DNA of 64,000 bases, from contig JAFGNA010000022.1 of NCBI GenBank assembly GCA_016927245.1, forward strand, positions 3,128-67,127. The letters are read 5' to 3'. Positions within the stretch are counted from its first letter, which is position 1. The number at the start of each line of letters is the position of its first letter. This document shows positions 46,997 to 51,147 of the stretch, piece by piece. The notes beneath the pieces were generated by a model that did no database searches, was not told the origin of the DNA, and worked only from the letters and a program-made list of their open reading frames with translations. The stretch is from Candidatus Woesearchaeota archaeon. Its GTDB lineage: Archaea > Nanobdellota > Nanobdellia > Woesearchaeales > WJKR01. The position numbers were made by a program, and so were the translations under genes.

Positions 46997-47138
46997 GCCC
47001 TATCCGGAACATTTATATACGAGTAAGTTAGCGAAGCTAAATAACGTAGCAAGAATAACCATCCTAAATAAATAAAGTAAATAAACAAGTTAAGTTAGCG
47101 AAATAAACAAAGTCAAGTAAGTAAAATGAGTTAGTAAC
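46997..47138. promoter_or_regulatory. AT-rich upstream region with short direct repeats before the RHH-RHH-giant-protein operon
   Basis: Repeated gttagcgaa, aaataaacaa and agtaagt motifs; sharp GC drop relative to flanks. Confidence 0.35.
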
Positions 47139-47264
47139 ATGAAAAACCTCAACATCACCATACCAGAAGAGCTCCACAAACAACTCAAGATAGCAGCAGC
47201 CACGCAAGGAACCACGCTCAAAGAAGAAATAGTGGCGGCGCTCGAAGAAGGGATACGGCGATGA
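47139..47264 (+). CDS. Ribbon-helix-helix (CopG/Arc-like) small protein, copy 1
   Basis: Hand-translated 41 aa: MKNLNITIPEELHKQLKIAAATQGTTLKEEIVAALEEGIRR; beta-strand then helix-helix pattern of RHH. Confidence 0.55.
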   Translation: MKNLNITIPEELHKQLKIAAATQGTTLKEEIVAALEEGIRR

Positions 47265-47398
47265 AAAACATCAACATCACCATACCAGAAGAGCTCCACA
47301 AACAACTCAAGATAGCAGCAGCCACGCAAGGAACCACGATCAAGGAACTCTCCATCAATCTGCTGGAACAACGCATAAAAAGAGGTGGACGAGCATGA
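47261..47398 (+). CDS. Ribbon-helix-helix small protein, copy 2 (tandem duplicate)
   Basis: 45 aa: MKNINITIPEELHKQLKIAAATQGTTIKELSINLLEQRIKRGGRA; ATGA overlaps on both sides. Confidence 0.55.
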   Translation: MKNINITIPEELHKQLKIAAATQGTTIKELSINLLEQRIKRGGRA

Positions 47399-50300
47399 AC
47401 GGACGCCTCGCGAAGACGCTCACAATCATCATCCTCACCCTCGCAGCAGCAGGAGCCATCCTCGCCACCAGCTTCAGCGACGGCCCCGACATCAGCCCGC
47501 TGAACAGCGAGCACCCCACCACGAGCGACAACATCGTCTGCTCATGGGACAGCACCGACGCCACCCAGCAATGGGTGAGCTGGATCAACGGCAGCACGGT
47601 ACACAGCGGACCGATAAAAATAATACTGCCGCAAGAGAGCCACACGCTCACCGCAGGGACCGCCAAGCGAGGAGAGACCTGGGCGTGCAACGTGACGCTC
47701 AGCAACGGCACCGCGAACATCACCGCATCAACAGGAGGGTTCACCATCAAGAACGCGCCGCCAACGGCGCCGAACGCCACGGACAGAACATTCTACGAGG
47801 ACCAGACCGCCGTCTTCACCATCAAGAGCACCGACGCGGACGGCGACACGACGAGGTACTACCTCATCGACCCGGCAGAAGCGGACGAGCGATACTGCAC
47901 CGTCGGCGAGACCACAGGGGAAGTGAGCTGCACCCCCAACAAAGAGGACAACGGCACGACGAGGTACGAGTACCTCGTCCTCGACCTCAACGGCGGCTAC
48001 AACGGCAAGAACATCACCTACCAAGTCATCCTCGTGAACGACCCGCCAAGCATCACCCTCACAGACCAAGAAGCCATCGAGGACACAGCATTCAACTACT
48101 CATTCAACGTGACGGACGAGGAAGGACACTTCCCGATCAACTTCACCTTCGAGAGCAACCTCACCAGCATCAACCTCACACAGACCGGGAGCAACAGCGC
48201 GTACATCACGTTCAACCGCGAGAGCAACGCCCCAGTCTTCGGCGAGAAAGGGTTGTGGTGGGTGCGCGTGAACGTGACGGACAACGGGCCGACGAGCGAC
48301 ACACCATATGACAACCCGAACGCCACAGCAACCTTCCTCCTGAACGTGACCACCATCAACCAGCTCCCGAACATCACAACAGACCTCGACGCGCTCGGCC
48401 TGGAAGGGACGCAACGGCAGCTGTTCAACTTCACCGTCCACGCCGAAGACCTCGACGAAGCGGACACGCTCACGTTCTCCATAAGCTCCAACTGCACCCT
48501 AGCAACAGACCCCTGGACCACGAACATCTCCACGACGAACAGCAGTCCCGAGAACGCCACCGCTCTCATCAGCGCAAACCTCACCAACGATCACGTCGTG
48601 TGCAGGTGGGTGACCATCACCGTCGACGACGGGGAGGCTCAGGACGAAGAGACCGTCTGGCTCAACCTCACGAACAAGAACGACCCCCCAGTCATCAACG
48701 CCATCAGCGACCAGGAGACCGTGAAAGGAGCGACGTACACCTACCAGGTATCAGCACACGACCCGGACGAGCTCACCTACGAAGGGGAAGAGCTCACGTA
48801 CTGGCTGAACGACACGCTCTTCTCCATCAACACCACCACAGGGTTCATCAGCACCGTCATCAACGACACCCACGTCGGCAACCACACCCTCCTCATCAAC
48901 GTCTCAGACGACGACGGCGAGAGCGACGCCAAGACCTTCAAGGTCGAGGTCAAGAACAACACCTTGCCCGTGCTGCGAAGCATAGGAGACGTGACGTGCG
49001 ACGAGGGAGACCTGTGCACGGTCTACCTCATCGTCGACGACCCTGACCCTGGAGAGGACTTCACCTCGAGATTCACGAGCAACGACACAGCAGTATTCCC
49101 CATCGTCAACGTTAACCAGACCGCCTGGCAGCACCAGCAATACCATAACGACACCGGAGAGGTCGGGAGCTACAGCATCAACATCACCGTCGCGGACCGC
49201 TATGGCTTCACCGACACCGAGACCTTCACGTTCACCATCAACAACACGAACGACGCGCCGTACTTCAACAGCGTGAACATCAACTGCACCCCTATCGTGA
49301 AGGGAAAGGCGTACTACCGAACGGTCGACGTCATTGACGAGGACGTCATGTACGACCTCGACACGCTCACCTACAACTGGTCCTTCATCACCATGGCGAA
49401 CGCGACCTTCACCCAAGACTTCTCGTTCACGGAGAACGGCACCGACTACTTCACCATGCGACTGACCCCTGAGGAAGGGCAGGCAGGCTTCTACGAGGTC
49501 AACCTCTCAACAACTGATAGCGAAGGCGCCACGCACTTCGAAATAGTCTCGTTCGACGTGCTCACCCCGAGCACCCCGCCGTATATCGAGTTCGTGAGGC
49601 CATACTGGAACGGCACGGCCAACCGCACCGAGACGACAATGGGCAACGCCTCATCGTTCCCGAGCAACCGCACGTCCATCAACGCGTCGGAGAACTCATC
49701 ATTGGTGTTCGACGCCATCGCCATCAACGACTCCAGCTTCCCGTACAACTCGCTCGACTACCACTGGTACCTCTATGGCTCATGGGACTCCACGTTGACG
49801 AACGTCAAGATGAGCGGCTCATCATCGAACGCCTCCTACGACTTGACCTTCGGGTTCTTCGACGAGGGCACCATCGAGGTGGTGCTCATGATAGAGGATT
49901 ACAAGGACTCGGTGGCGAACTGGACGTGGGAGGTCAACATCACCGACCTGAACAGGCCGCCGACGCTCATCAACGACCTCCCGAACATGACAGTAGAAGG
50001 CAGCTACAAGGACGGGAATGATTACTTCGCCGGATCTCAGGAAGGCACAGGGCTGGCGAACTGGCGCCAGCGGTTCTACGACCCTGATGATGACACCAGC
50101 ACTGATGAGGGGTTCATCTCCCCGTTCCCCTACGCGACGCCGCCCGGCGACGGCGTGCGCACGTCATCGCCGAGCATCGACGAGGAGACGAGCCTCACCT
50201 ACAGCCTCGCGCCCGGAGAGAGCTGCACCAATGCCGAGATAACCTTGAACGGCGATGACGTCGACGTGGTGGGCGTCGCCGTCGGGGAGTGCAGCGTGGT

Positions 50301-51147
50301 GTTCCGCGCGACCGACCCGTACGGCGAGTACGTAGACAGCAACAAGGTGTACATCACGGTCACGGCGATCAACGAACAGGAGGTCAAGGACCCGTCGCCC
50401 TCATCATCAAGCCCGCGGCCACGACCGGTGCCGATACCCATCGATAACCCTGTTGAGACACCGTACCCCATCGAGCTCATCACACCGAAGGATGTGTTCA
50501 CCTACGCTAACGAGACGGTAGAGATACCGCTCACCATCAAGAACACGTGGAACGACACGCTGTTCGGCGTCACGCTGAACGCCACGGCAGACAACCTCAC
50601 CGAGGACGTCTCGTTCCGATTCACCGAGTGGTCCTTTCCCTCATTGGAGACCGGCGAGAACATCTCAGTCAGCCTGTTCATCGACGGGTACCGCAAGGAA
50701 GCCCCCCTCGCAGTGGTCGTCTCTGCATGGGTGGACGATCCCGAATACGTCGACCGCGCGACGGTGATGATAAGCTCGATGGAGCAGCAGGACAGCGGCG
50801 ACGACGTGGAGAGCAAGGTCGTGTTCGCCCGTGACCTGATGAACGACAACCCTGAGTGCCAGGAGCTCGTCGAGCTCATCGACAGGGCGGAGCAGGAGCG
50901 TTTGCGGCACAACTATGACGAGGCGGTGAAGCTGGTGGAGACCGCGGTGAACGGTTGCAAGTACCTCATCAACGAGCAGAAGGACGTCGAGGAGGAGCGG
51001 CCGAAGGATTTCTTCGCGACCATGACCATCAGTCCCGAGCAGCTGCCCGCGCTGATCATCGGCGGCGTCATCGTCATCATCCTGCTCGTATTCGGCATCA
51101 TCATGCTCTTCTCAGGCAGGAAGGACGGGAGCAAGCTGGACATCTAG
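47395..51147 (+). CDS. Giant (1250 aa) glycosylated cell-surface/adhesin-like protein with C-terminal TM anchor
   Basis: N-terminal signal/TM, dozens of N-x-S/T sequons, repeated (N)DPP-containing cadherin-like modules, C-terminal LPALIIGGVIVIILLVFGIIMLF then a basic tail. Confidence 0.7.
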   Translation: MNGRLAKTLTIIILTLAAAGAILATSFSDGPDISPLNSEHPTTSDNIVCSWDSTDATQQWVSWINGSTVHSGPIKIILPQESHTLTAGTAKRGETWACNVTLSNGTANITASTGGFTIKNAPPTAPNATDRTFYEDQTAVFTIKSTDADGDTTRYYLIDPAEADERYCTVGETTGEVSCTPNKEDNGTTRYEYLVLDLNGGYNGKNITYQVILVNDPPSITLTDQEAIEDTAFNYSFNVTDEEGHFPINFTFESNLTSINLTQTGSNSAYITFNRESNAPVFGEKGLWWVRVNVTDNGPTSDTPYDNPNATATFLLNVTTINQLPNITTDLDALGLEGTQRQLFNFTVHAEDLDEADTLTFSISSNCTLATDPWTTNISTTNSSPENATALISANLTNDHVVCRWVTITVDDGEAQDEETVWLNLTNKNDPPVINAISDQETVKGATYTYQVSAHDPDELTYEGEELTYWLNDTLFSINTTTGFISTVINDTHVGNHTLLINVSDDDGESDAKTFKVEVKNNTLPVLRSIGDVTCDEGDLCTVYLIVDDPDPGEDFTSRFTSNDTAVFPIVNVNQTAWQHQQYHNDTGEVGSYSINITVADRYGFTDTETFTFTINNTNDAPYFNSVNINCTPIVKGKAYYRTVDVIDEDVMYDLDTLTYNWSFITMANATFTQDFSFTENGTDYFTMRLTPEEGQAGFYEVNLSTTDSEGATHFEIVSFDVLTPSTPPYIEFVRPYWNGTANRTETTMGNASSFPSNRTSINASENSSLVFDAIAINDSSFPYNSLDYHWYLYGSWDSTLTNVKMSGSSSNASYDLTFGFFDEGTIEVVLMIEDYKDSVANWTWEVNITDLNRPPTLINDLPNMTVEGSYKDGNDYFAGSQEGTGLANWRQRFYDPDDDTSTDEGFISPFPYATPPGDGVRTSSPSIDEETSLTYSLAPGESCTNAEITLNGDDVDVVGVAVGECSVVFRATDPYGEYVDSNKVYITVTAINEQEVKDPSPSSSSPRPRPVPIPIDNPVETPYPIELITPKDVFTYANETVEIPLTIKNTWNDTLFGVTLNATADNLTEDVSFRFTEWSFPSLETGENISVSLFIDGYRKEAPLAVVVSAWVDDPEYVDRATVMISSMEQQDSGDDVESKVVFARDLMNDNPECQELVELIDRAEQERLRHNYDEAVKLVETAVNGCKYLINEQKDVEEERPKDFFATMTISPEQLPALIIGGVIVIILLVFGIIMLFSGRKDGSKLDI

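Follow-up and report, generated by a model that had tools for sequence, protein, structure and literature searches.

Introduction

The omega repressor, a ribbon-helix-helix (RHH) protein, binds arrays of heptads in either orientation. Among archaea, aCcr1 of the Sulfolobales is a 58-amino-acid (aa) RHH repressor of the cell cycle; aCcr1-boxes lie in the interval from TATA box to start codon, and binding there has been argued to block formation of the pre-initiation complex (PMC9976878). In the cdrL-cdrS-ftsZ2 operon of Halobacteria, tandem small RHH genes are co-transcribed with a structural gene and CdrL binds the operon promoter, and cdrS and ftsZ2 co-occur in all archaeal clades except DPANN (PMC7439475). 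Here we analysed 64,000 nucleotides (nt) of a Candidatus Woesearchaeota archaeon (assembly GCA_016927245.1, 91.5-kb contig JAFGNA010000022.1, positions 3,128 to 67,127; hereafter the window), in which two tiny RHH genes lead directly into the gene for a giant surface protein (46997-51147, leader included). To our knowledge, hardly anything has been learnt about how DPANN archaea regulate their genes. An earlier interpretation of the bare DNA, the sequence-only reading, had drawn attention to this locus. We find that its leader carries phased palindromes that accompany the RHH genes across related genomes, and we argue that genes and palindromes together probably form a dedicated regulator of the operon.

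Results

Two small RHH genes overlap a large gene

The locus consists of three co-oriented open reading frames (ORFs) joined by two ATGA overlaps: RHH1 (47139-47264, plus strand, 41 aa), RHH2 (47261-47398, plus strand, 45 aa), which overlaps both of its neighbours in this way, and the large surface-protein gene (47395-51147, plus strand, 1250 aa). The sequence-only reading had described just such an ATGA-overlapping pair of 41/45-aa RHH ORFs before a giant gene, and we recovered its coordinates and both junctions. Its view that the small ORFs had been overlooked does not apply to the public annotation, where both carry the NCBI name 'HicB family antitoxin' and the large ORF is entered as hypothetical (Candidatus Woesearchaeota archaeon). 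A Shine-Dalgarno-like sequence, GAGGTGGA (47382-47389, plus strand), lies inside the 3' end of RHH2, with 5 nt between it and the large gene's start codon, and its counterpart in the closest relatives (L002, L003 and L005 in our numbering of loci) is AGAGGTGG/AGAGGTGA. The large gene is preceded by a strong Shine-Dalgarno-like GAGGTGG both in the window and in its nearest relatives, while RHH1 has none upstream. This comparison was confined to the window and its closest relatives; a census of all loci was too noisy, the starts of the large gene being uncertain.

Both small ORFs are genuine genes under purifying selection. Between loci, the RHH genes differ at codon positions 1, 2 and 3 by 0.37, 0.22 and 0.65, a pattern that marks them as translated and constrained. 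They encode RHH-fold proteins, as had been claimed, and profile matches, an AlphaFold (AF2) model and Foldseek agree on this. Nine to ten Pfam RHH families match RHH1 and RHH2 near threshold (E 1e-5 to 6e-2), including FitA-like, ParD, RHH_5, HicB, RHH_10, Omega and ParG, and the same set recurs across 65 relatives; the matches are all weak because the chains are so short. A 65-member profile searched against the PDB matched ParD (2an7, 5e-4), omega (2bnw and 1irq, 3e-3) and ParG (1p94, 0.025), and RHH1 scores 78 bits against the family hidden Markov model (HMM). The single-sequence AF2 model of RHH2 (predicted local distance difference test, pLDDT, 84) has an extended N-terminus (residues 1-9) followed by helices at residues 10-23 and 27-40. 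The beta-strand is unformed in this monomer, as expected of a ribbon that exists in the dimer only. The top PDB matches of the model in Foldseek were all RHH proteins (ParG, Arc, CopG, VapB, AtaR and AmrZ), with template modelling (TM) scores of 0.6-0.78.

In the family alignment M1 and H13 are invariant, and N3, N5, I6, P9, K17 and K28 are at least 90% conserved; N3 and N5 would lie on the predicted DNA-reading ribbon. A putative dimer that binds DNA through its ribbon finds indirect support in the palindromic motif described below, the conserved Asn3 and Asn5, and a natural fusion of two RHH units into one 102-aa chain in locus L019 (971-1279). Single-chain fusions of two, three or five RHH units occur in proteins P0047, P0062, P0072, P0089 and P0083 as well as in L019. 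These multi-RHH chains of distant relatives and the L019 fusion fit, and do not prove, a working dimer of two units.

The public name implies that the small ORFs might be orphan type II antitoxins that lie beside the large gene incidentally. HicB (PF05534) does score 22.3 and 21.0 bits against a cut-off of 21, and the ParD and FitA-like models score slightly below their cut-offs. However, the HicB alignment spans 25-26 residues of the RHH part only, HicB matches at E ≤ 1e-3 in only 18 of the 65 family members, and each protein, at 41-45 aa, consists of a bare RHH domain. Neither HicA nor any other toxin gene was found beside the RHH genes in the flanks in the window or in the gene maps of the mapped relatives, and the partner conserved in at least 90 loci is the large surface-protein gene. 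We regard an antitoxin role as very unlikely, and the public label finds no support, there being no toxin partner. The annotation thus amended is systematic, these 'HicB antitoxins' being without a toxin. RHH1 and RHH2 are not members of Omega_Repress (PF07764): they score 19.5-22 bits against a cut-off of 33.3, and the DNA unit found here is 9 base pairs (bp), not a 7-bp heptad.

The arrangement is conserved among Woesearchaeota

A word-indexed protein search with RHH2 returned only the two proteins of the window itself, and an exhaustive search gave 56 weak relatives without context. As these direct searches were uninformative, conservation was established through orthologues of the large gene and their flanks. 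The common order in relatives is a ~660-aa Big_9/Cys-rich membrane protein, one or two ORFs of 41-49 aa and the large gene, followed by an acidic protein on the opposite strand and then MoxR, DUF58, BatA/VWA and DUF212. We searched the RHH HMM against every six-frame ORF in the loci of the large gene, 78 of them from representative genomes and the others collected beforehand, and obtained 88 matches, which represent 80 non-redundant genes in 43 loci. All 88 lie on the same strand as the large gene and directly upstream of it, and the search found the family nowhere else in those ~11-kb loci or in the 64-kb window. Ten loci have one copy, 30 have two, two have three and one has four.

The reverse test gave the same picture. 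Metagenome contigs were seeded with the RHH N-terminal peptide, and in 50 of the 64 loci with at least 600 nt downstream an orthologue of the large gene lies immediately 3' of the RHH genes. Five of the other 14 precede other large secreted proteins (L093, Gly_rich_2/Big_13; L155, DUF11; L154; L163; L128). Virus-like or mobile contexts account for L147/L152 (an IMG/VR contig) and for L118/L125/L133, which lie beside an intein-bearing protein; the rest are L165 and L166, where small ORFs follow, and the short contigs L149 (with the gene neighbourhood of L147/L152) and L162. The virus-like locus L152 is identical with L169 and corresponds to IMGVR_UViG_3300031952_000038, and the intein-containing neighbour of L118/L125/L133 is 929 aa long.

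The RHH genes most often join the large gene by a 4-nt overlap, in 15 of 41 loci from genomes and in 27 of 54 from metagenomes. Overall, the syntenic arrangement is present in at least 90 loci, about a hundred related Woesearchaeota loci in round numbers. The sequence-only reading had named conservation of the RHH pair in related genomes as its first check, and this check comes out in its favour: the family sits before the orthologous large gene. Many representative genome records with a Woesearchaeota-type locus (L012, L014, L018, L019 and others) are titled 'uncultured Methanosarcinales archaeon', and one (L054) 'Alphaproteobacteria bacterium'; these are probably mislabelled bins.

The leader carries palindromes in a 9-bp register

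The gene upstream ends at 46996, and the intergenic leader that follows (46997-47138) is 142 nt long with a GC content of 0.30, as against ~0.58 on average for the window up to 56 kb. It contains an archaeal TATA box, TTTATATA (47012-47019, plus strand), immediately preceded by CGGAACA (47005-47011, plus strand), which by the archaeal promoter consensus would act as a B recognition element (BRE). The same cGGAAnn plus TATA arrangement is found in the relatives L002, L003, L005, L007 and L008, and transcription is predicted to start near 47042.

When the leaders of 41 loci were aligned by eye, a common BRE/TATA promoter (e.g. ggaaacaTTTATAAAT) was followed by repeated TAAGTTA/TAACTTA, with the TATA-like box 5' of the array in most of them. 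An unbiased strand-collapsed k-mer count ranked TAAGTTA/TAACTTA as the top 7-mer, with 97 copies in 35 of the 41 leaders and a 15.7-fold excess over 96 AT-rich control regions, likewise upstream and of the same loci. Among these controls, two or more copies occurred only in the leaders themselves, which had entered the set via spurious antisense ORFs. In the refined matrix the site is the palindrome TAA[G/C]TTA, whose 'orientation' depends on the central base alone, and the two orientations are equally common (50 vs 47). A palindrome without strand bias is in keeping with a protein of two-fold symmetry on DNA rather than with an RNA signal. Of 62 intervals between successive sites, 25 measure exactly 9 nt and 43 a multiple of 9. 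In the leaders' base autocorrelation there are peaks at 9, 18 and 27 nt (0.43, 0.40 and 0.38), whereas the controls are flat at 0.32. The first palindrome usually abuts the TATA box and typically begins 8-12 nt past the first base of that box.

In the window these sites form two operator-like arrays, neither of which is assigned to a strand. Array 1 (47024-47086) has seven 9-bp units (TAAGTTAgc, GAAGCTAaa, TAACGTAgc, AAGAATAac, CATCCTAaa, TAAATAAag and TAAATAAac), with matrix sites of 12.3 bits at 47022-47032 and 6.7 bits at 47040. Array 2 (47091-47135) has five (TAAGTTAgc, GAAATAAac, AAAGTCAag, TAAGTAAaa and TGAGTTAgt) and ends 3 nt before the RHH1 start codon; its matrix sites score 12.8, 6.4 and 6.0 bits at 47089, 47116 and 47125. 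Autocorrelation of this leader likewise peaks at 9, 18 and 27 nt. A matrix trained without the window found 21 sites in the 64 kb, and five of them fall within the 130-nt leader, the densest cluster of all; this answers the counter-test of the sequence-only reading, that such repeats might be as dense by chance elsewhere. Exact TAAGTTA alone occurs three times in the window against 1.6 expected, which is not significant; the motif emerged only through comparative data and the matrix.

The sequence-only reading had already seen an AT-rich leader with short direct repeats, and this description stands: TAAGTTAGCGAA and AAATAAACAA are each present twice, and the matrix hits show that the repetition is not random. 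Its choice of 'gttagcgaa' and 'aaataaacaa' as the repeated unit has to be replaced by TAA[G/C]TTA in a 9-bp register; 'gttagcgaa' was noticed because both arrays start with exact TAAGTTAGCGAA.

The array accompanies the RHH genes. In 16 full-length orthologous loci without RHH genes, where at least 250 nt each were examined, we counted three motifs in total, and the promoters of these loci lie close to the large gene's own start. Conversely, the array is present where RHH genes precede other large secreted proteins (L093, L155, L163 and L128). The virus-like RHH copies (L152/L147 and L118/L125/L133) lack the TAA[G/C]TTA array.

These data bear on whether the array could serve the promoter or 5' untranslated region independently of the RHH proteins, whether as a strong-promoter or melting element, to enhance translation or to bind some other factor, with the RHH targets lying elsewhere. 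The array would be transcribed if the TATA box at 47012 is used, and AT-rich leaders are common among archaeal promoters. An element of this kind is nevertheless hard to reconcile with an array that is missing from the 16 RHH-less orthologous promoters and from AT-rich control promoters, that accompanies RHH genes before unrelated secreted proteins, and that is palindromic without strand preference. In addition, an RNA-level element in the leader was rejected, as the leader RNA folds no better than shuffles (z = 0.69) and has no Rfam match. We consider RHH-independence distinctly unlikely.

The position of the array also bears on a partition-type system, in which ParG/omega-like proteins would coat an iteron array as a segregation site. 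ParG and omega are among the best structural and profile matches, and short phased repeat arrays resemble centromere sites. Yet the precomputed Pfam lists for the flanking genes of loci L002-L010 include no ParA-type ATPase, the context is chromosomal, syntenic and housekeeping-like, and the array is placed exactly between TATA box and start codon. Partition thus seems highly improbable to us. Much the same holds for a phase-variable on/off switch of an adhesin, which the sequence-only reading had entertained on seeing a repeat-bearing leader before a surface-protein gene. The units are imperfect 9-bp palindromes and not identical, slippage-prone tandem tracts; there is no simple-sequence tract, no invertible segment or inverted repeats around the promoter, and no recombinase nearby; and the layout is stable in about 100 loci. 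We give this mechanism almost no weight. What survives of the proposed on/off control is a dedicated operon regulator, the best reading in view of the RHH identity, the synteny and a leader element specific to RHH-bearing loci.

A different repeat was seen in some relatives. Units of ~50 nt, GGTAAATAACAAAAACnnnGTTTTTGA...CCAAAATTTCnnGAGGTGAAAATT, are repeated in the spacers of RHH genes in L015 (3670-3847), L049 (2401-2474) and L071 (3731-3883). They contain a small inverted repeat, occur also 5' of the first RHH gene in L015, L020 and L049, and are absent from the window.

The two RHH copies resemble each other within loci

Two RHH copies are the norm (75 of 97 loci). In the window, the first 87 nt of RHH1 and RHH2 are 97% identical, so that 27 of 29 residues agree; the C-terminal thirds diverge, and identity over the whole proteins is 76%. 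The corresponding 87-nt identity is 53-79% in most other loci and 0.64-0.69 in the closest relatives of the window. Identity is 0.56 between paralogues of one locus, 0.51 between loci at the same position and 0.49 across positions. As paralogues within a locus are the most alike, the data point to concerted evolution of the tandem genes, of which the window would be an extreme case. Distinct upstream-type and downstream-type paralogues were considered and rejected, same-position identity (0.51) being hardly different from cross-position identity (0.49). By eye, the N-terminus shared by both window proteins is like that of the relatives' downstream copy (KIAAAT.G), while the C-terminus of RHH1 is like that of the upstream copy. 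Given this mixed resemblance, RHH1 looks like a gene-conversion chimera whose N-terminal 29 aa were seemingly copied from RHH2. The pair may serve as a clear-cut case in which gene conversion has kept tandem regulator paralogues alike.

The large protein has features of an envelope glycoprotein

The 1250-aa protein starts with a hydrophobic segment (residues 5-29, signal or anchor) and ends with a transmembrane helix (~1217-1240). It has 55 N-x-S/T sequons, compared to 18 ± 3.7 in shuffled sequences, and thus combines a secretion signal, many sequons and a C-terminal anchor, as expected of an envelope glycoprotein. The sequence-only reading had called the protein glycosylated; the excess of sequons is real, and N-glycosylation itself is a potential that they indicate. 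Its Ig/cadherin-like domains match generic families only (Big_9, tandem-95), and we found no match to any S-layer family described so far. In a model of the C-terminal 270 residues we see a Pro/Ser linker, a beta-sandwich, a bundle of three helices that holds a conserved Cys pair, and the transmembrane helix; Foldseek returned generic beta-sandwiches only. Full-length orthologues of ~1190-1330 aa with 28-49% identity are found in many Woesearchaeota/Nanoarchaeota genomes. A single copy per locus, conserved length and synteny suggest an S-layer-like envelope component or a conserved host-contact protein, which is probably abundant.

Genomic surroundings

Upstream of the leader, 45017-46996 (plus strand) encodes a 659-aa membrane protein with a Big_9 domain, a transmembrane helix and a helical cytoplasmic tail. 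It carries four Cys-rich 'C.DG.QN..E.GVDCGG.C..C' repeats and is syntenic 5' of the RHH cassette in many relatives; an antisense ORF over this gene (45113-46987, 624 aa) is spurious. Downstream lie an acidic low-complexity protein (51186-52529, minus strand), a conserved neighbour that measures 227-552 aa in relatives, and four genes in conserved synteny: MoxR AAA (52677-53684), DUF58 (53701-54612), BatA/VWA (54617-55576) and DUF212 (55537-56010). Neighbouring co-oriented genes between 45017 and 51147 show opposite preferences for A or T at third codon positions: the AT skew there is -0.86 in 45017-46996, whereas the RHH pair has +0.90 and the large gene +0.51. In the window as a whole, most genes prefer A and a minority T at this position, regardless of strand.

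The sequence-only reading had also attributed the flavour of acquired DNA to the locus. We found no sign of this: the locus is syntenic in at least 90 loci, and the GC content at third codon positions (GC3) of the large gene, 0.86, and its third-position skews match those of core genes, e.g. 12528-15113 and 36843-38651. The RHH pair is AT-richer (GC3 0.52) yet positionally conserved. The compositionally foreign DNA of the window lies instead at 56.2-64 kb. Across 56054-64000, GC falls from about 0.58 to 0.31-0.45 right after a tRNA gene (56054-56170, plus strand, 117 nt), and the genes in this low-GC part specify a Prim-Pol/DUF5906 primase (57989-60109), a TGT-like protein (61567-63012) and, on the minus strand, an N6/N4 DNA methylase (63013-63792). 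This island is probably an integrated mobile element and the window's real acquired DNA; no attachment (att) repeat for it was found inside the window. The adjoining tRNA gene and a second one at 41256-41360 (minus strand, 105 nt) were detected by Rfam and missed by ARAGORN, and presumably bear introns.

Discussion

We think it fairly likely that the RHH-RHH-surface-protein operon is under negative autoregulation by RHH dimers bound to the array. A single BRE/TATA promoter (47005-47019) would drive all three genes. Each dimer, either a homodimer or an RHH1/RHH2 heterodimer, would read one palindrome via its two-stranded beta-ribbon, and dimers would line up at 9-bp intervals, from the site nearest the TATA box as far as the start codon, and thereby hinder assembly of the transcription machinery. 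Experiments have demonstrated this logic for two other RHH proteins, the omega repressor being one of them. Repressors and surface protein would be made from one mRNA with ATGA-coupled reading frames, so the circuit would be one of negative feedback that sets and steadies the output of the envelope protein. The strong Shine-Dalgarno-like site of the large gene, against none for RHH1, might yield far more structural protein than repressor. The loop could be pure feedback or be modulated by some partner.

Several points weigh against this interpretation. DNA binding, repression (as opposed to activation), co-transcription and the transcription start are all inferred. Only two units in the window are exact palindromes and the others are degenerate, array 2 is shifted 4 nt out of register with array 1, and no exact 7-mer falls within 160 nt in 6 of the 41 leaders, where arrays are displaced or variant. 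The AT-rich leader contains other TATA-like stretches, and a second, closer promoter is possible. RHH proteins of 41-45 aa have no sensor domain. Moreover, some organisms may be represented in both the genome and the metagenome set of loci.

The sign of regulation is the other point at issue. The RHH proteins could bind the array and activate or architecturally organise the promoter, for example if coating kept a strong promoter open, and the linkage of RHH genes and array is silent on this matter. Such a role is possible, though sites downstream of a TATA box usually repress, while archaeal activator sites usually lie 5' of the BRE. The array geometry is also that of the archaeal RHH repressor aCcr1. 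On the other side, CdrS, an archaeal RHH protein co-transcribed with ftsZ2, is an activator (PMC7439475). We judge activation or an architectural role unlikely, if the least unlikely of the alternatives discussed here, and keep to negative autoregulation.

A broader proposal would make the locus a portable cassette of promoter, operator array and mini-RHH genes, lineage-wide and specific to the main envelope or host-contact proteins. In it, two RHH paralogues in concerted evolution would coat the 9-bp-phased palindromes cooperatively; the resulting nucleoprotein filament would cover the whole leader and set the level of the surface protein. We offer this idea tentatively and hold it to be clearly less probable than simple autoregulation. 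If true, it would be the first regulatory circuit defined for the uncultured, symbiotic Woesearchaeota, with an operator architecture not described for archaeal RHH proteins. The locus can be tested without culture, the 41-45-aa proteins being synthesisable and the candidate operator a defined palindrome in a 9-bp register. The presumed target, a conserved and probably abundant surface glycoprotein, is a good candidate for a role in the cell envelope or in host contact.

In the literature searched, we found no published description of the module or its motif and no regulator-operator pair for Woesearchaeota. The components, an RHH autoregulator and a repeated operator, are of known kinds. Their combination, a lineage-wide DPANN surface-glycoprotein cassette with palindromes phased at 9 bp in arrays of up to about 12 units and concertedly evolving tandem regulators, appears undescribed.

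Each of the known RHH systems shares some of these traits. The HicB, ParD and FitA antitoxins have the RHH DNA-binding module and are the source of the public annotation; here, in contrast, there is neither a toxin partner nor an antitoxin-specific domain, and the conserved partner is a surface-protein gene. Arc, MetJ and CopG share the fold (Arc and CopG with Foldseek TM about 0.7-0.78), autoregulation and cooperative binding to adjacent sub-sites. Their operators, however, have two to five sub-sites with 8-11-bp spacing and belong to phage, plasmid or metabolic contexts, and the proteins here have no significant membership in their sequence families. The omega repressor of pSM19035 (PDB 1irq, 2bnw), among the best profile and Pfam matches here, is likewise a small RHH dimer that recognises short side-by-side units in either orientation, placed before the genes it controls, its own included. 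Its units are 7-bp heptads, whereas those described here are 9 bp with a palindromic 7-bp core; omega is bacterial, plasmid-borne and also active in partition, whereas the present cassette is chromosomal, archaeal and linked to a surface protein.

The archaeal systems come nearest in layout and mechanism. The cdrL-cdrS-ftsZ2 operon also places two tandem small RHH genes directly upstream of a structural gene, but its target is a tubulin homologue, CdrS activates, and a repeat array is not described. The closest mechanistic precedent is aCcr1, with its like promoter geometry. It acts in trans on cdvA and about a dozen promoters with one or two boxes each, whereas the Woesearchaeota cassette keeps its regulator genes in cis, co-oriented and overlapping with their presumed target, behind arrays of up to about 12 units.

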